From the IMG/VR virus record IMGVR_UViG_2563366807_000009: a stretch of 19,447 nt of DNA, one strand, 5' to 3'. The DNA comes from a virus. Taxonomy: Duplodnaviria > Heunggongvirae > Uroviricota > Caudoviricetes. The notes under the pieces are model-generated. The model was not told the DNA's origin. It made no database searches and saw only the letters and a program-made list of their open reading frames with translations. The position numbers and the translations under genes were made by a program. This document shows, in pieces, positions 5,915 through 15,782 of the stretch (position 1 is its first letter; every line of letters starts with the position of its first letter).

Positions 5915-6847
5915 CTATTCGATTTTTTTAACCATGTAGTTACGTCGTGATGTTCCTAATCTTTCATTGTGAATCTCAGAAACGCTTACTACGAGCGATA
6001 TTCGTTCACCAACTTTATATTTACTTTGAATTTCTCCTAACATATCAATCGGATAAGAAGCCTTTATTTTTCCAAGCTCGCTTGCAATCTCCAATTTCCC
6101 GTACATGGATAAAATAGCAAGTTCGCCTGATATATGCTCATCCGGTAGCTGAATGACCTTCGTTAAAGCTAAGCGAGCATTCAGTTTTTTTATATCTTCT
6201 GAAGAAATTGACACTTGTCTGGTACCATCACTTAAAGGTCCAATCCAAGTAAGATCAAAGTTAAGACTATATTTTTCGCACTCATTTATGATGTTTTTTA
6301 GGTTAGCTGTTGATTGCGAACCAATTTCGGCAATTTTAGCCGTGAATGTTTCTTCATCAATGGATGAGAGTAGTGCAAAAATCTCCTTAACAGCATGACT
6401 GGATACTGTTTCGATGAGCTCGCAAGAACCAGTAGAAAAAGTAACACCTAACTTCGTCGAACCTGGACGCAAGTCTGCCAATCTCATGTCTAATGATTTT
6501 TTAACATCAATCGGCACACGACTAGAATCTTTCCCAGATCCAAGTCGGTAAACTGCTTTCTGTACAAGGGATGCGAGATTACCTGAAATTACAGATAGAA
6601 TATCTAACGGAATAGACCCGAAATCGACCAAAACACCTTTTAATCTCAACTCCATGAAATCACGTAAAGGATGTTGGTTATCGATTGCACGTTGTCTCTC
6701 TCGGAGATCGCTCAGATGGGAGTCAAGTGATCTAAATATAATGTCATCAGCAAATGATCTCCCCTTATTTTGAGCAAGCAGATCCACATCGCGTTGAATG
6801 AACGCAATTCGCTCCTTGAGGGAGTTGAATGTTTTTTCTTCGCTCAT
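5915..6847 (-). CDS. hypothetical 310-aa protein, second gene of the rex-slot cassette; no family recognised
   Basis: Long ORF whose ATG (6847..6845) overlaps the upstream gene's TGA as ATGA. Visibly AT-rich compared with flanking lambda-like genes. Immediately followed by a terminator. No transmembrane segment or catalytic motif that I can assign. Confidence 0.75.
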   Translation of the reverse strand: MSEEKTFNSLKERIAFIQRDVDLLAQNKGRSFADDIIFRSLDSHLSDLRERQRAIDNQHPLRDFMELRLKGVLVDFGSIPLDILSVISGNLASLVQKAVYRLGSGKDSSRVPIDVKKSLDMRLADLRPGSTKLGVTFSTGSCELIETVSSHAVKEIFALLSSIDEETFTAKIAEIGSQSTANLKNIINECEKYSLNFDLTWIGPLSDGTRQVSISSEDIKKLNARLALTKVIQLPDEHISGELAILSMYGKLEIASELGKIKASYPIDMLGEIQSKYKVGERISLVVSVSEIHNERLGTSRRNYMVKKIE

Positions 6848-7317
6848 AACATTACCCTCACGAGGCCTTTAGGATTCTCCTTCCGATCAAAACCAAACCA
6901 CCCTCTCCAGTAACTTCGCCTTTCACTATAATCGATTTCTGGATGATTTTCAGGCAGCAAAAGAACGTCAATGCTGTAGTTTTCTTTAATAAAATCTCTA
7001 TTTAACAATGAGCTGACCAATGGCATCAGCGTGTTTGGCAAAGAGTTTAGGGCCAAATAATCGACGACCACGAGTATATCTATGTCATCAGGTTCAGGTT
7101 TCTCTGTAGTGAATGAACCATCGATCCACACTTCAGAGAAACATAGACACTGCTGATTAACAAGTTTAAATTGCTCAATAAGCTGTATAAAATTACAGTA
7201 TAGCATACTTCTTCTAACGGATTTTGGGAAGGTGTCGACACAAAGAGACTTGATGCCATCACTATCCATATCATGAAATCCTGCTGTAAGAAGAGGTGGG
7301 AAGCTAGGCTTTTCCAT
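6844..7317 (-). CDS. minimal nucleotidyltransferase-like protein (Pol-beta superfamily signature), first gene of the rex-slot cassette
   Basis: 157-aa ORF 81 bp downstream of the cI stop, AAGGA before the ATG. Contains GSFTTEKPEPDDIDILVVV, i.e. G-S, 9 residues, D-I-D, hydrophobic strand, with a later acidic strand YSIDVLLL. This is the hG[GS]-x9-13-Dh[DE]h pattern of MNT-type nucleotidyltransferases. Confidence 0.75.
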   Translation of the reverse strand: MEKPSFPPLLTAGFHDMDSDGIKSLCVDTFPKSVRRSMLYCNFIQLIEQFKLVNQQCLCFSEVWIDGSFTTEKPEPDDIDILVVVDYLALNSLPNTLMPLVSSLLNRDFIKENYSIDVLLLPENHPEIDYSERRSYWRGWFGFDRKENPKGLVRVML

Positions 7318-10048: not shown

Positions 10049-10746
10049 AAAACATCGCCGCACAGATGGTTAACTTTGACCGTGAGCAGATGCGTCGGAT
10101 CGCCAACAACATGCCGGAACAGTATGACGAAAAGCCACAGGTACAGCAGGTAGCGCAGATCATCAACGGTGTGTTCAGCCAGTTACTGGCAACTTTCCCG
10201 GCGAGCCTGGCTAATCGTGAGCAGAACGAACTGAACGAAATCCGCCGCCAGTGGGTTCTGGCTTTCCGGGAAAACGGGATCACCACGATGGAACAGGTTA
10301 ACGCAGGAATGCGCGTAGCCCGTCGGCAGAATCGACCATTCCTGCCATCCCCCGGACAGTTTGTAGCCTGGTGCCGGGAAGAAGCATCCGTTATTGCCGG
10401 ACTACCAAACACCAGCGAGCTGGTTGATATGGTTTACGAGTATTGCCGGAAGCGTGGCCTGTATCCGGATGCAGAGTCTTATCCGTGGAAATCAAACGCG
10501 CACTACTGGCTGGTTACCAACCTGTATCAGAACATGCGGGCCAATGCGCTTACTGATGCGGAATTACGGCGCAAGGCTGCCGATGAACTGACTTGTATGA
10601 CCGCGCGAATTAACCGTGGTGAGGCGATACCTGAACCAGTAAAACAACTTCCTGTCATGGGCGGTAGACCTCTAAATCGTGCACAGGCTCTGGCGAAGAT
10701 CGCAGAAATCAAAGCGAAGTTCGGACTGAAAGGAGCAACTGTATGA
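10045..10746 (+). CDS. P: replication protein P (DnaB helicase loader)
   Basis: 233 aa, MKNIAAQMVNFDREQMRRIANNMPEQYDEKPQVQQVAQIINGVFSQLLATFPASLANR..., matches lambda P as recalled. ATGA overlap with the O stop. Confidence 0.95.
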   Translation: MKNIAAQMVNFDREQMRRIANNMPEQYDEKPQVQQVAQIINGVFSQLLATFPASLANREQNELNEIRRQWVLAFRENGITTMEQVNAGMRVARRQNRPFLPSPGQFVAWCREEASVIAGLPNTSELVDMVYEYCRKRGLYPDAESYPWKSNAHYWLVTNLYQNMRANALTDAELRRKAADELTCMTARINRGEAIPEPVKQLPVMGGRPLNRAQALAKIAEIKAKFGLKGATV

Positions 10747-11293: not shown

Positions 11294-12796
11294 TTAAATT
11301 GCATCTGCAAACTCTGGGGTTTTTCGCTCAGGTATAATTGATGAGTTGCTGTTGTCACTTTTTTTATTTTCATGATTACGAATAGCCAATGACTCATTAA
11401 AGTCTTTTGCGACTGCTGTCTCAATAAATTCAATTTCTGAATCAGAGTGTTTTTTAACAGCTTCTTTGATCTCATCCAGAGTAACATAGAAAAACTCTTT
11501 TCTACGATTTACAAGATTGACTCTCTTTTTATCGAAGACATCATGTAGTTTTTTTTCTAATGATGGAGCGTCCTCCGAATAAATCATGGCATGTACATCA
11601 AAAATAAAAGGAACAGATGCATCACCGAGCTCATTTACACGGTCTTGCGGATCAAGACGTCGTGTCATGCCTATTTTATAAACATTCTCCCCAAAAGAAC
11701 CTATGTTCGAAATAATATAAACATGACCTTGTTTGGTTTGTTGTGCCATGGATAATGCTCTTTGATGCTTTGATTCAGCCTGCGACAAACTCTGTTCTAG
11801 TTCGGCAATGCGATTTTCGAGGCGCTGCTTCATGTCACCAGTAACTTTTTCCATTTCCTTTCTTGCAGCTTCAATTGCTTTTTTATAACGGCGCTCTTCT
11901 GCCTCTGCGTCTTGCATGGCCTTTTCTATTTCTCGTTGTGCACGCTCCTCCTCTCTCATTTGTGCCCTTATTTCTGCCTGTTCTTCTTTTTCTTTCTGTT
12001 TTTGCTCACGATATTCATGGGTAAGCCACAATTCCTCAAGTTTTTTATTGAGGTATTTAGTGTTTATATATATGTGATTTTGCTCGTTTAGTTTATTTAT
12101 GGCCTCAAATGCCTTTGTGATGCGTTCTTCCATTTTAGTGATGTTTTTCCACGTGCAATTGCTAATTGCAGCATCACATTCATTATTAAATGCTCTAGTA
12201 GTTAGCCTGATATTTCTGTCTGTCATTTTTTTACCCTCTGCTCGAGAGCCTTCAACAGTCCATTGGGTTGTACAATATACTGCGCCAGAGTGGGTTTTAT
12301 CCCGCAGCATTAATTTCTGTTCATCCCTGATGGATTTTATTTTGTTTTTAAATTGCTCTGAATCTTCAAAATTAAAATGAGGTTCGTAAAATCCTAGTTC
12401 GGCTAGCTCAACATCTTCTGAATAAATAGAAATTTGCCTTACTAGTTTATCATATATTTCTTTCTTCTCTTTATAAGTTCTTCTTAGCTCTTGGATTTGT
12501 TTATTGATACCATCCATTTTTTCAATGGTGTTTGTTAGTTCATTATTGGCATTTTCTTTTACTTTTAGGGATTCTTCTTTTATTATGGAGCATTCTTGCT
12601 CTGTTTTCTCAATAAGCTTCTTACATTCTTCTTCTACATTAAAATAATCTGCAAAGCGAGATTTGTATTCTTCATTTTTTTGATTGCTATCACTTAATTC
12701 TAATTGTATTTTTTTGATGCGTTTGATTGCAGCTATATAAAGAACAAGAACAACCAATAAAAATATGATTGCAAGTAATAGAGGAGTTTGAGTCAT
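11294..12796 (-). CDS. membrane-anchored coiled-coil protein with C-terminal GIY-YIG/T5orf172-like nuclease domain; candidate anti-phage defence protein
   Basis: 500 aa, strongly AT-rich, convergent with ren. N-terminal hydrophobic helix (LLLAIIFLLVVLVLYIAAI), long E/K/R-rich predicted coiled coils, C-terminal GHVYIISNIGSFGENVYKIGMTRRLDPQDRVNELG...E, i.e. GIY...YIG...R...E spacing. AAGGAA Shine-Dalgarno before the ATG. Confidence 0.85.
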   Translation of the reverse strand: MTQTPLLLAIIFLLVVLVLYIAAIKRIKKIQLELSDSNQKNEEYKSRFADYFNVEEECKKLIEKTEQECSIIKEESLKVKENANNELTNTIEKMDGINKQIQELRRTYKEKKEIYDKLVRQISIYSEDVELAELGFYEPHFNFEDSEQFKNKIKSIRDEQKLMLRDKTHSGAVYCTTQWTVEGSRAEGKKMTDRNIRLTTRAFNNECDAAISNCTWKNITKMEERITKAFEAINKLNEQNHIYINTKYLNKKLEELWLTHEYREQKQKEKEEQAEIRAQMREEERAQREIEKAMQDAEAEERRYKKAIEAARKEMEKVTGDMKQRLENRIAELEQSLSQAESKHQRALSMAQQTKQGHVYIISNIGSFGENVYKIGMTRRLDPQDRVNELGDASVPFIFDVHAMIYSEDAPSLEKKLHDVFDKKRVNLVNRRKEFFYVTLDEIKEAVKKHSDSEIEFIETAVAKDFNESLAIRNHENKKSDNSNSSIIPERKTPEFADAI

Positions 12797-13104
12797 TCGT
12801 GCTATTCCTTACGGACAATTTAAGACGTTTTGTATTAAATCCTGTTCAATGTGTATGCGGGTGATTGCTACCGCTTACAATCTTCATAATTATCAGTTAG
12901 ATAGACTCGCTAGTAAATAATTTCATTTTTTGCAATATTCTTATTGAATATTTCAATTTATGAAATGAACTCTTTATCCTTTCAAGGTGAAAGGTTTCTT
13001 CTTCGGAAATATTTGCTCTCGTGTGACGTATAAAGACCTTTGATTTTCAAAAATCAGTAGGGAATAATATAGTTACTGTCGGCCTGAACACCCGGTGGTG
13101 GGGT

Positions 13105-13196
13105 TGCGCTAAACGGGGACGTTTATGCGCACACACAATCCAAACTCTCATCTCCATTCACAGATGCAGAAATGCACCTACGATTTTTTACATTCG
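13105..13196 (+). repeat. direct repeat copy A (about 92 bp)
   Basis: TGCGCTAAACGGGGACGTTTATGCGCACA... is identical over the first 29 nt to 15039 onward and shows only a few mismatches thereafter. Contains a 10-bp bulged hairpin GCGCTAAACG/CGTTTATGCGC with a GGGA loop. Confidence 0.85.
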
Positions 13197-13341
13197 GTGT
13201 TTTACTTCGACAGCCAGAATTGGGAGTCTCTATTCGTCTGGCGGCTAAAGGTGATATGGAAATCGTTATGTTTTGGCCTGAGGTAGTTGTAACTGTTGTA
13301 GCAGCTATGGATGTGATCATCATGGTGTCCATTTACTGGGG

Positions 13342-13452
13342 TTGACGACATGATTTATCCGGCGCTATATTCTGTGCGTTGCCGCAAAATCGGCACACGG
13401 GATTGGCGTCCCGGGATACTACTCAACGCATACCGCGTTAAGCGGTTTTTTT
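13342..13452 (+). ncRNA. candidate short terminated transcript (sRNA or attenuated leader) upstream of the Bro-N gene
   Basis: TTGACG (13342-13347), 18-bp spacer, TATATT (13366-13371). Downstream, a GC stem ACCGC/GCGGT with GTTAA loop (13432-13446) runs into a T tract to 13452. The region between is GC-rich and self-complementary. No ORF. Confidence 0.3.
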
Positions 13453-13608
13453 GTGCGCTAAGCACGGCTATGCCCAAATTATGGTGGGCTGTGTGAGGGC
13501 TTCTTCGGAAGCGCCGGGTTTGAGTAGCCGGTTACGCCAACCTTACACAGTTCACCACCAGTCGATTGGCGTCGTTGGTGGTGATGGTTAACCTGATGAG
13601 GTGATACT

Positions 13609-14217
13609 ATGACTACTCAATTAGCATTCCACAAAACGACGTTTACCCCGATTTGCCACAATAACAGAATTTGGCTTACTGCCACTGAAGTTGGTTTAGC
13701 ACTGGAATATGCGGACGATAAAGCAGTTCAGCGCATTTACTCTCGGCACTCAGATGAATTCACAGATATGATGACAAGGGTGGTCAAAGTGACCACCCCT
13801 CGTGGAATGCAGGAGTCTCGAGTATTTAGCCTTCGCGGAGCCCATTTGATCGCCATGTTTGCTCGTACTCCTGTGGCCAAAGAATTCCGCCGCTGGGTTC
13901 TGGATATTCTCGATCGAGAAGTTCAACAATCCCCAATCACAAAACAATTCACTGATAACGAACTTTGCACACTCGCCTGGTTATGGCGAGCAAGTGATAC
14001 GATGTTAACCGCCTGCCAGAACGTTACGCCCCTTCTTCAGGTCGCAGAGCATCGCGAAGCAGGTAGATTCACTTCAATCGAACAAGAATATCCTCGGATA
14101 CTCAACAGGGCGCGAGAAATCCTTGCCAGAGAAACGGCGCATGTAAAATTCCAACCGTGGCAGGATGATAAGTGGAGTCGTGTGTTACCATATTTCCGTC
14201 AGAATCTGTTGCAATAA
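13609..14217 (+). CDS. Bro-N domain antirepressor-like protein
   Basis: 202 aa, GAGGTG Shine-Dalgarno. N-terminal IWLTATEVGLALEYADDKAVQRIYSRHSDEF...RVFSLRGAHLIAMFARTPVAKEFRRWVLDIL fits the Bro-N/antirepressor pattern as I know it. Confidence 0.75.
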   Translation: MTTQLAFHKTTFTPICHNNRIWLTATEVGLALEYADDKAVQRIYSRHSDEFTDMMTRVVKVTTPRGMQESRVFSLRGAHLIAMFARTPVAKEFRRWVLDILDREVQQSPITKQFTDNELCTLAWLWRASDTMLTACQNVTPLLQVAEHREAGRFTSIEQEYPRILNRAREILARETAHVKFQPWQDDKWSRVLPYFRQNLLQ

Positions 14218-14236
14218 AGTCACTAGTTAGAAATAC

Positions 14237-14277
14237 TGCCAGCATTCTGCGATGACGGAAGTGCTGGCATTTTTTTT
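14237..14277 (+). terminator. Rho-independent terminator after the Bro-N gene
   Basis: 8-bp stem TGCCAGCA/TGCTGGCA (14237-14244 and 14262-14269) followed by eight T residues (14270-14277). Confidence 0.7.
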
Positions 14278-14452
14278 GGTAATGTGCGAGTCCATTTCAT
14301 AAAATACGGGTACTGGAACTGGACGATATAATCTAAAAGATACCATTATCAGTAGCATTAAAATCGCTATGTGCCGATACGGATATAAATTATATTGATT
14401 GTTCACATACCTTATTGGATATTACTGAGGGGTGTTTATATAAGGTGTAACG

Positions 14453-14962
14453 ATGATGTGGAACTTTGACAGTGCCGACTTAAGTGCAATAGCAGCAGGC
14501 ATTTCTGCGTTTGGCACATTAGCCGCAGCGGGGTCGGCGCTTGCAAGTTGGTGCACGTCAAAAAAAGCGCTGCAGCTACAAAATAGAGTTTACCTTTATG
14601 AGTCTTTAAAGGCTTGCGCTGAGAGAGCCAATTCATCAGCTAAAGATAAGCGCGGATCTGAATGGAGCGTTAATGATGCAGCGGATATCATCAGGTGCCT
14701 AGTACGGGCGATGGAGCTCATCAAGCAGGATAGCCAGCAGAAAGAAGGTAATCAGGCATTAATGTTGAAACAGTACTTTGTTAATCTGCTAATAATGGAA
14801 CTGTACGAGGAAGTTCATAACGGTGATGCGGCTGATTCTGTTTTTAAAAGTACGGAACCTACACAAGTACTTGATAACTTATGGAGCAAATGGCAGGAGG
14901 CTATAGCTTTTTTTGATATTTGGAATTACCCAGTTGCGACTGAGGAAGACTTGGCAGACTAA
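14453..14962 (+). CDS. hypothetical protein with N-terminal hydrophobic anchor (169 aa)
   Basis: AAGGTG Shine-Dalgarno. An N-terminal hydrophobic stretch of about 25 residues (LSAIAAGISAFGTLAAAGSALASW), remainder hydrophilic. Own promoter region after the upstream terminator. No family recognised. Confidence 0.7.
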   Translation: MMWNFDSADLSAIAAGISAFGTLAAAGSALASWCTSKKALQLQNRVYLYESLKACAERANSSAKDKRGSEWSVNDAADIIRCLVRAMELIKQDSQQKEGNQALMLKQYFVNLLIMELYEEVHNGDAADSVFKSTEPTQVLDNLWSKWQEAIAFFDIWNYPVATEEDLAD

Positions 14963-15038
14963 TTTTCAGCACATTTGATTTCCAATAATCAACCAGCCAT
15001 AATCATGCCATTGGAGCTTGAACAACTCCGGTGACTTC

Positions 15039-15130
15039 TGCGCTAAACGGGGACGTTTATGCGCACATACAATCCAAACTCTCTTCTCCCTTCACAGATG
15101 CAGAGATGCACCTGCGATTTTTTGCATCCA
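15039..15130 (+). repeat. direct repeat copy B, immediately upstream of ybcN
   Basis: Same unit as 13105-13196, including the bulged hairpin. Ends 26 bp before the ybcN GTG start. Confidence 0.85.
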
Positions 15131-15156
15131 GCGTTTGACCTCTGCGGAGGTGAAGC

Positions 15157-15612
15157 GTGAACCTCCCACAAGACGGCATCAAATTGCATCGTGGTAACTT
15201 CACCGCTATCGGCCAGCAGATCCAGCCTTATCTGGAGGAAGGCAAATGCTTTCGCATGGTGCTTAAACCGTGGCGTGAGAAACGCAGTCTTTCCCAGAAT
15301 GCACTCAGCCACATGTGGTACAGCGAAATCAGTGAATACCTCATCAGCAGGGGTAAAACGTTCGCCACTCCAGCTTGGGTAAAAGATGCTCTCAAACACA
15401 CATATCTCGGTTATGAAACCAAAGACCTGGTTGATGTCGTAACCGGTGAGATCACCACTATCCAGTCGTTACGCCATACCTCCGATCTTGATACCGGAGA
15501 GATGTATATCTTCCTGTGTAAGGTTGAAGCCTGGGCGGTGAATATTGGCTGCCACCTGACTATTCCGCAGAGCTGCGAGTTCCAGCTGCTGCGCGACAAG
15601 CAGGAGGCGTAA
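15157..15612 (+). CDS. ybcN: YbcN-like nin-region protein (reported DNA base-flipping protein)
   Basis: 151 aa from a GTG start with GGAGGTG 5 nt upstream. The sequence [62 protein letters not shown]... and its length match DLP12 YbcN as recalled. Confidence 0.85.
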
Positions 15613-15782
15613 TGGCTACACCGCTTATTCGTGTCATGAACGGACACATCTACAGAGTACCAAATCGTCGTAAGCGTAAACCTGAGCTGAAGCCATCCGA
15701 AATACCAACACTGCTCGGATATACCGCCAGCTTGGTTGATAAAAAATGGTTGCGACTGGCAGCAAGGAGGAATCATGGCTGA
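15612..15782 (+). CDS. ninE: NinE
   Basis: 56-aa [59 protein letters not shown]. Its ATG overlaps the ybcN stop (TAATG). Below the ORF-track size cutoff, so translated by hand. Confidence 0.8.
   Translation: MATPLIRVMNGHIYRVPNRRKRKPELKPSEIPTLLGYTASLVDKKWLRLAARRNHG

Follow-up and report, generated by a model that had tools for sequence, protein, structure and literature searches.

A putative duplicated head of the nin operon flanks an antirepressor cassette in a DLP12-like prophage

Lambdoid phages are mosaic, and one established source of this mosaicism is the relaxed homologous recombination carried out by Rad52-like phage recombinases (PMC3945230). Several described systems bear on the locus considered here. 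At the head of the nin operon, the prophage DLP12 carries ylcH and phage 82 carries orf33 (record X92588), small genes with stop codons that overlap the start of the gene that follows (ybcN and orf151, respectively). In phage lambda the same map position, directly before the first nin gene, holds a terminator (the tR2 position). Antirepressor switches that involve small RNAs are known from immI of phage P1 (c4-icd-ant) and from the isrK-orf45-anrP locus of Gifsy-1; in the latter, read-through from the isrK promoter yields an mRNA that stays translationally silent, and activation comes in trans from the short IsrK RNA (PMC4825925). Here we report a 19,447-nt stretch of caudovirus DNA (IMG/VR record IMGVR_UViG_2563366807_000009; hereafter the window) in which two apparent copies of the ylcH head, copy A at 13105-13208 and copy B at 15039-15142, enclose an antirepressor cassette. 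The window is a DLP12-like lambdoid prophage, with a tRNA, integrase, exo-bet-gam, repressor, O, P and ren, and then ybcN-ninE-ybcO-rusA-ylcG-quuD. The small gene ylcH/orf33, the isrK/C4 antirepressor switch, the PD-Lambda-1 defence gene and module exchange at conserved sequences are all known already, and the present locus is a new instance of such exchange. We consider it likely, with good though not full confidence, that the cassette is flanked by a duplicated nin-operon head and is exchanged by homologous recombination between the two leader copies.

The repeat pair as two heads of the nin operon

A repeat search of the window returned one long repeat family only, the pair formed by copies A and B (both on the plus strand; 104 nt, 89% identical, ungapped, at a spacing of 1934 nt). 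Pairwise alignment confirms the two near-identical repeats of a preliminary description of this DNA: the first 29 nt are identical, the first mismatch lies at offset 29, and 8 mismatches fall across the 92 nt read earlier (91% identity). The identity sets in abruptly at TGCGCTAAACGGGG and the similarity fades past ~13208/15142, while weaker homology (~65%) extends ~75 nt to the left of both copies and spans a promoter-like site and a further hairpin, H1. By calculation, an exact 29-mer repeat is expected ~7e-10 times in 19.4 kb, and the pair is thus not due to chance. Many complete Escherichia coli genomes match the two-copy arrangement at 100% identity (at least 80% of 12800-15700 is present in 112 genomes). 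The complete phage record PhiR26_1 has it as well, which rules out an assembly artefact.

Each copy begins with a hairpin, H2 (UGCGCUAAACG-GGGA-CGUUUAUGCGCA), of 11 base pairs with one bulged U and a folding energy of -14.4 kcal/mol (z = -4.4 and -5.2 against shuffled sequences). The bulge, the GGGA loop and the lack of a U-tract had been described correctly; the stem, given before as 10 base pairs, folds as 11. The letters that follow H2 are ACACACAAUCC or ACAUACAAUCC, not the direct U-tract that together with a GC-rich hairpin marks an intrinsic terminator, and a terminator scan does not call H2.

Copy B covers the ribosome-binding site and most of the coding sequence of ylcH (15059-15160, plus strand; 33 codons; RefSeq WP_001309322.1), whose stop overlaps the start of ybcN (GTGA). 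With its GTG at 15157, ybcN (15157-15612, plus strand; NinB/Orf family by RefSeq, Pfam and PHROG) is the first long gene of the nin operon and lies, as had been stated, directly downstream of copy B. E. coli K-12 has ylcH (b4588) at the equivalent position, with its leader in DLP12 at about 572,316-572,470. The resemblance to DLP12 ylcH and phage 82 orf33 is close across both leader and reading frame, and includes the 33 codons, the ribosome-binding site and the overlapping stop. Record X92588 annotates the ribosome-binding site of orf33 on the GGGG of the hairpin loop, as well as a putative -35, a putative -10 and an inverted repeat just upstream of orf33, and these align with the promoter-like site and H1 of the window. 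What had been taken for an anonymous conserved boundary sequence is, instead, the ribosome-binding site and coding start of ylcH/orf33 with the leader that precedes them. Unlike DLP12 and phage 82, the window has a second, partial copy 1.9 kb upstream.

In this second copy, the open reading frame (ORF) shares the ATG of ylcH (at 13125), departs after about codon 27 into unrelated sequence and ends at 13286 after 53 codons. A small ORF of ~31-33 codons with a stop overlapping the ybcN/ninB start is therefore present in copy B and not in copy A. Three of 7 sequence variants have a disrupted copy A frame, owing to loss of the start codon (locus L003), a stop at codon 15 (L020/L062) or a frameshift (L024); such repeated destruction marks copy A as a relic 5' part of ylcH. 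YlcH had no match in Pfam or PHROGs, and the 53-aa product of the copy A frame had none in Pfam. Together, the two copies appear to be paralogous heads of the nin operon of phage-82/DLP12-type lambdoid phages, with copy B the predicted working head and copy A a partial copy with a decaying ylcH frame.

Filled and empty sites

We scanned IMG/VR with the 27-nt core of the hairpin and classified the resulting 120 loci by BLAST against named pieces of the window, among them gapL, which is 12797-13104 (308 nt, to the left of copy A), and gapR, which is 14963-15038 (76 nt, to the left of copy B). The row for locus L023 was left out of the multi-locus alignment. Seven loci (L018, L023, L036, L065, L066, L079 and L085) are empty sites in which gapL is followed by a single copy and then ybcN. 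They are 95-100% identical to the window, the junction falls exactly at the repeat, and the PD-Lambda-1 gene, ren and P precede gapL wherever a locus reaches further left. A synthetic empty junction, made of 12805-13104 joined to 15039-15338, is present in one piece in 46 complete E. coli genomes (98.5-99% identity), and the filled left junction in 83. Strain EC96, for example, has a prophage of the empty form that likewise occupies the argU/intD site. These single-copy loci bear out the suggestion that the ~1.9 kb between the copies is a module gained or lost at the repeat.

The same suggestion is supported by phages that carry the antirepressor core between two copies with different trailing cargo. 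In eight two-copy loci (L003, L020, L021, L024, L058, L062, L064 and L100) the core of isrK, C4 and ant always adjoins copy A, the copies are spaced 1933-2463 nt apart, and ant is followed by differing cargo. In L013 and L059 the core stands right behind ren, without a copy A.

Single copies flanked by PD-Lambda-1 are B-type at all 22 diagnostic positions. We looked for chimeric single copies with an A-type left and a B-type right part, the signature of a deletion within the repeat, and found none; all are B-type throughout, and any crossover is therefore confined to the first 29 nt. Each left flank occurs with each copy type, which gives all four combinations: gapL with A (the window), gapR with A (L024, 99-100% identical across the cassette), gapL with B (the empty sites) and gapR with B (most loci). 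Recombination at the hairpin must thus have occurred.

A simple form in which ren is directly followed by ybcN, as the preliminary description had envisaged, was not seen among the 57 loci compared. A single copy before ybcN was indeed found in related prophages; ren is not its direct neighbour, and the distance from ren to the leader ranges from 839 to 4812 nt with ~20 distinct values. In K-12 this interval holds emrE, ylcJ, ybcK, ybcL and ybcM. The ren-to-leader interval is a hypervariable cargo slot. In ~2,940 E. coli genomes the ylcH leader repeat itself occurs just once. In L021 and L082 a different upstream junction truncates the 5' arm of H1, a sign that the leader may contain further breakpoints.

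The cassette is, as far as comparison of these sequences can tell, an insertion/deletion polymorphism that results from homologous recombination in a conserved repeat, that is, ordinary phage mosaicism. As in other lambdoid mosaic exchange, identical flanks enclose an accessory block in some genomes and none in others, and the junction lies in a short sequence that otherwise diverged alleles share (PMC3945230). Unlike the usual case, the shared sequence occurs twice per genome, so that intramolecular deletion is possible, and it is a structured leader rather than a linker at a gene boundary.

In the mechanism we propose, the nin-operon head would consist of a sigma-70 promoter, H1, H2 and the 33-codon ylcH translationally coupled to ybcN, and homologous recombination from one leader copy to another would add the cassette, remove it or change its flanks. 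The crossover would most likely fall in the invariant 29-nt block of H2, because this is the sole perfect stretch long enough for efficient recombination. Efficient homologous recombination requires a segment of roughly 25 bp at least. That the 29-nt block alone qualifies agrees with where the junction is observed and with how rarely the cassette is lost. Genes for Exo, Bet and Gam are present in the prophage, and these proteins or RecA may carry out the exchange. The direction of any single insertion or deletion we can only infer.

The locus offers a clean and quantified example of accessory-cassette swapping in lambdoid prophages, with a short, strictly conserved nin-head sequence as the homology patch. 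Across relatives, the cargo of the slot before the leader includes PD-Lambda-1, the antirepressor with its predicted small-RNA control and, in K-12, emrE and ybcK-ybcM. The slot thus helps to predict where prophages carry defence and regulatory cargo, and why such cargo moves as blocks.

The ylcH leader and its hairpins

In the window, the leader of copy B (15006-15069, plus strand) follows a promoter, TTGATT-17-CATAAT, at 14975-15003 that was found by a consensus scan and aligns with the putative -35 and -10 of X92588. It contains H1 at 15009-15033 (loop CUUGAACAA) and H2 at 15039-15065 (GGGA at 15050-15053), and H2 encloses a Shine-Dalgarno-like (SD-like) GGGGA and the AUG of ylcH at 15059. 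Copy A has a corresponding promoter-like site, TTGATT-17-AATAAT, at 13040-13068 on the plus strand (consensus scan; aligned with the invariant TTGAT/ATAAT columns of the leader). Its own leader, at 13072-13135 on the same strand, has an intact H2 at 13105-13131 (GGGA at 13116-13119) and a weak H1 that pairs solely via G-U pairs around the loop CCUGAACA.

The leader is not restricted to E. coli. Homologues of ybcN from other species were gathered without regard to their upstream sequence, and the leader unit was found upstream of those of Enterobacter, Citrobacter, Huaxiibacter, Siccibacter and Phytobacter, as well as in phages HK639, HK225, CobraSix and KO-TP1. It was not found at four more distant ybcN homologues (three from Pantoea, one from Rosenbergiella). 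The leader likewise stands upstream of NinB-type genes in L075, L096, L112, HK639 and KO-TP1, and in the homologues the ylcH stop overlaps the start of ybcN or ninB. The promoter, TTGAT(T/A)-17-(C/A/G)ATAAT, keeps invariant hexamers and the 17-nt spacing around a variable spacer sequence, and TTGANN-17-NATAAT occurs at a fixed distance in 45 unique sequences upstream of the leader. This motif, predicted from sequence and present for both copies of the window, lies ~14 nt upstream of the H1 loop.

Both hairpins vary in ways that preserve pairing. H1 has a conserved loop, CCUGAACAA, on stems that differ and yet are complementary (for example GUCACCGGAG/CUCCGGUGAC, UUGUCAG/CUGACAA and CUGCCAG/CUGGCAG). 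H2 has an invariant GGGA loop of the GNRA type on the stems GCGCUAAACG/CGUUUAUGCGC, CGCAUUUAAG/CUUAAAUGCG, GCACUUCGAUG/CAUUGAAGUGC and GCGCCGCAAUG/CAUUAUGGCGC. Folded individually, 16 of the 16 leaders that head ybcN or ninB, from at least 6 genera, give both H1 and H2; copy A of the window gives H2 and not H1. Additional alleles with wholly different, complementary H1 and H2 stems occur in the leaders of L021, L014 and L088, including the H2 stem GCGCUUUGAG/CUCAAAGUG in L021 (reverse strand, 10608-10668).

A covariance model built from six Enterobacter/Citrobacter-type leaders finds copy B (54.4 bits, E = 6e-11) and copy A (23.6 bits, E = 0.005) in the window and nothing else; the lower score of copy A reflects its degenerate H1. 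In the model alignment, which replaced a MAFFT alignment that mis-registered H2 between the E. coli-type and Enterobacter-type stems, 96.7% of cells are paired, compared with 81% in shuffles and 32-46% in controls with slid partners, and 17 of 20 pairs have changes on both sides. RNAalifold independently recovers H1 and H2, with a compensatory change in 16 of 17 pairs. The frequent U-G pairs fit folding of the plus strand as RNA rather than a DNA operator. In X92588 the inverted repeat is a possible regulator site in DNA; the covariation observed here, which includes G-U pairs, favours an RNA hairpin instead. The folds of the homologues and the covariation agree with the earlier view of the hairpin as a conserved structure, which is not a recombination scar and instead part of a leader conserved across Enterobacterales.

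Constraint extends into the coding sequence. One block in the 3' half of ylcH, CACAGATGCAGAAATGCACCTGCGATTTT(C/T)TGCAT, reaches at least 90% conservation in each column when genera are compared, while in the same comparisons the synonymous third positions of ybcN are only 45-56% identical; this contrast points to constraint at the nucleotide level. A 35-nt stretch at 15094-15128 (CACAGATGCAGARATGCACCTGCGATTTTYTGCAT) is nearly invariant from E. coli to Siccibacter, where synonymous sites of ybcN are saturated. Within the block, a UGCA-GNRA-UGCA mini-hairpin is supported by one compensatory change only (in Siccibacter). Two other structures in ylcH were considered and rejected: a long hairpin, H3 (AUGCAGAAA/UUUYUGCAU), is predicted for copy B and broken in the variants from Siccibacter and an Enterobacter metagenome-assembled genome, and a terminator-like call at 15099-15116 has 5 weak pairs and shares its T-run with an alternative stem.

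In H2, the SD-like GGGG(A) falls within the loop and 5' arm, and the 3' arm holds the start codon of ylcH; SD and AUG are spaced by 6 nt in both E. coli-type and Enterobacter-type stems (counted from the sequences). The operator for the MS2 coat protein at the replicase start is a translational operator hairpin that sequesters the ribosome-binding site. H2 is similar to an operator of this type, being short and bulged with a loop of 4 nt, and it likewise carries the SD sequence across its loop and 5' arm and has the start codon on the opposite, 3' arm; the likeness is one of structure only. At about -14 kcal/mol, H2 over the ribosome-binding site should keep ylcH largely untranslated until it is opened and, via coupling, a closed H2 would also hold down ybcN, the first nin gene. 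Thus, by its predicted structure, H2 probably gates the translation of ylcH. Given the GGA of the loop, CsrA is a speculative candidate for a partner. We put forward a wider proposal tentatively, and rate it slightly below an even chance: that the leader, with its promoter, H1, the SD/AUG-sequestering H2 and the 35-nt ylcH block, might be an undescribed cis-regulatory RNA that gates translation, and possibly transcription, of the nin operon (ybcN/ninB...rusA...Q) across Enterobacterales, with H2 doubling as a preferred crossover site for defence and antirepressor cassettes.

In Rfam 15, no family covers the repeat or its hairpins, either in a scan of the window at gathering thresholds or in a scan of 12800-15300 at E <= 1; the permissive scan listed only C4, isrK, c4-a1b1 and a spurious mir-725. 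Our literature search found no paper describing this leader RNA and none mentioning ylcH together with ybcN. A search for an antisense partner of the H1 loop (TTGTTCAGG, at most 1 mismatch) gave 8 matches against 5.4 expected, and the only relevant ones are the two loops themselves. This side result, a structured and covarying leader with a conserved promoter, may matter more than the exchange itself. It suggests that in these phages an RNA element governs the expression of ybcN/ninB, RusA and ultimately Q, at a point where lambda relies on a terminator; if true, this adds a regulatory layer to a classic system. The rusA gene of DLP12 is silent, and control by the leader, if true, might help to explain this.

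Several observations weigh against our explanation of the repeats and their leader. No empty-site genome is 100% identical to the window prophage, the best reaching 99.0% over 600 nt, so a recent deletion from this element is not demonstrated and insertion and deletion are indistinguishable. Dozens of genomes carry the filled form at 100% identity, and loss is evidently rare. For the leader, the alignment used to measure covariation was fitted to the structure of the model and leans towards it, a concern that the single-sequence folds reduce and do not remove, and the evidence of expression is limited to ylcH RNA detected in a K-12 transcriptome table (PMC8910356). Finally, copy A keeps an intact H2 and the promoter-like site in nearly all variants, which could reflect selection rather than a passive scar.

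This last point leads to a different explanation, a functional duplication in which copy A would be retained as a promoter and structured leader that drives the cassette (the small ORF described below, with read-through into isrK and ant). Along with the perfect H2 and TTGATT-17-AATAAT, it draws on the covariance model, which still detects copy A, and on the 9 of 9 two-copy loci in which the same segment, with an ORF of family phrog_4612, follows copy A. However, the ylcH frame of copy A is broken in three of the seven variants, H1 is not predicted there, the conserved block downstream of H2 is mismatched (CTGCG to CTACG), and neither the terminator-like stem called by the scan in copy B nor the folded hairpin is recovered. 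The isrK module, moreover, has its own near-consensus promoter and stands directly after ren without copy A in L013 and L059, and the small ORF is interrupted in the variant of L042/L046/L058/L100. We therefore regard a functional duplication as unlikely, if still worth bearing in mind.

H2 might alternatively punctuate the pR transcript where modules meet, either as a transcription terminator or as a site processed by RNase III, which would explain its recurrence. In favour are the stability and conservation of the hairpin and, in lambda, a classic terminator hairpin with a U-tract that lies between ren and ninB, the equivalent position. No homologue, however, has a U-tract after H2; a stem of 11 base pairs is short for RNase III; what stays invariant is the GGGA loop, which is the SD sequence, together with a start codon in the 3' arm always spaced 6 nt from it, a pattern that points to control of translation initiation; and the lambda terminator does not match the leader model. 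This makes either role for H2 very improbable. The lambda element is an intrinsic terminator (AACAGGCCTGC...GCAGGCCTTTTTATTT; 1096-1135 of L148, 40595-40634 of the record). It combines a GC-rich stem with a U-tract and comes without ylcH, promoter, H1 or H2; the leader covariance model finds nothing in lambda. The lambda terminator and the 82-type leader are two different solutions at one map position.

Contents of the cassette and neighbouring genes

The view that the cassette is a mobile element moved by transposition or site-specific recombination, with the repeats as target-site duplications or attachment sites, has in its favour that direct repeats flank a discrete accessory block and that relatives show a precise empty site, yet it is the least credible of the alternatives, highly improbable and contradicted by the data, since repeats of at least 104 nt and only 89% identity are too long and imperfect for a transposon footprint, no transposase, integrase or recombinase domain or terminal inverted repeat was found between the copies, the repeat is the head of a resident gene present once in the ~2,940 E. 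coli genomes, the duplicated unit is longer in other phages (gapR plus repeat, ~180 nt), and the cassette has at least two different left junctions.

The contents of the cassette resemble the antirepressor switches introduced above. An isrK-type promoter, TTGACG-18-TATATT, lies at 13342-13371 (plus strand), just upstream of the start of the isrK model match, and is the best promoter-like site of the region (10 of 12 consensus matches). It is followed on the same strand by an IsrK-like small RNA including its terminator (13380-13452; Rfam RF01394, 58.7 bits against a gathering score of 50) and a C4-type antisense RNA (13477-13562; RF01695, 74.8 bits against a gathering score of 45). A c4-a1b1 target-like match (RF03163, 13365-13417) that overlaps isrK reaches 39.6 bits, under the gathering score of 46.7. 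The antirepressor gene (13609-14217, plus strand; Bro-N and P22AR C-terminal domains by Pfam, PHROG anti-repressor families and RefSeq) comes next. The preliminary description had rightly placed an antirepressor module between the copies and had overlooked the isrK and C4 RNAs, both of which match Rfam above the gathering scores.

The motif AUUGGCG occurs twice here, in the loop of the second IsrK hairpin (13402-13408) and downstream of C4 ahead of the ribosome-binding site of the antirepressor gene (13565-13571). As read from the sequence, both sites are complementary to CGCCAA(U) at 13535-13540 within the C4 RNA. We take this pattern to resemble the b1/b2-b' target arrangement of P1 immI. 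With isrK, C4 and then a Bro-N/P22AR antirepressor gene, and with its own promoter and IsrK terminator (both predicted), the cassette encodes what is by its gene and RNA content a putative switch of the P1 immI/Gifsy-1 isrK-orf45-anrP type. The locations differ: the Gifsy-1 locus lies downstream of antQ, whereas that of the window occupies the cargo slot between ren and the nin operon, between the two copies of the ylcH leader.

Between copy A and isrK is a small, strongly hydrophobic ORF of 29 aa (MEIVMFWPEVVVTVVAAMDVIIMVSIYWG; 13256-13345, plus strand; phrog_4612, E = 5.9e-17), the stop of which falls within the -35 element of the isrK promoter. It is intact in the variants of 8 of 12 relatives with copy A and broken in the variant shared by L042, L046, L058 and L100. 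Its product may be a small membrane peptide or a toxin linked to the isrK cassette. The ORF has the SD sequence AAAGGTGAT, matches the C-terminal half of phrog_4612, and exists in two C-terminal versions among relatives.

After the antirepressor gene, a terminator-like hairpin with a T8 tract was read from the sequence at 14238-14277 (plus strand; GCCAGCA...TGCTGGC, then A and TTTTTTTT). It is absent from the list of the consensus terminator scan, probably because of its long loop. The Rfam match to mir-725 at 14225-14283 (23 bits, gathering score 76) is a false positive caused by this hairpin. The cassette ends with variable trailing cargo, in the window a 169-aa ORF with a hydrophobic N-terminal segment (14453-14962, plus strand; phrog_1779, E = 1.7e-102), which is replaced by other cargo in L003, L020, L058 and L064. 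This ORF had no match in Pfam or PADLOC and phrog_1779 has no assigned function, so its earlier label as a membrane protein is unconfirmed.

The left neighbour of copy A is not ren. Between the two lies a gene on the minus strand (11294-12796) for a 500-aa PD-Lambda-1 anti-phage defence protein with DUF4041 and T5orf172/MUG113 domains (Pfam). The PADLOC match is full-length (residues 1-485, E = 1.9e-198), and the gene is annotated as PD-lambda-1 in phage PhiR26_1. In strain EC96 it is annotated as frameshifted. Further left, at 5915-7317 on the minus strand, a 310-aa hypothetical gene and a DUF6932 gene lie between the kil/gam region and the S24 repressor. EC96 carries a different gene at this position, which may be another variable accessory or defence slot.

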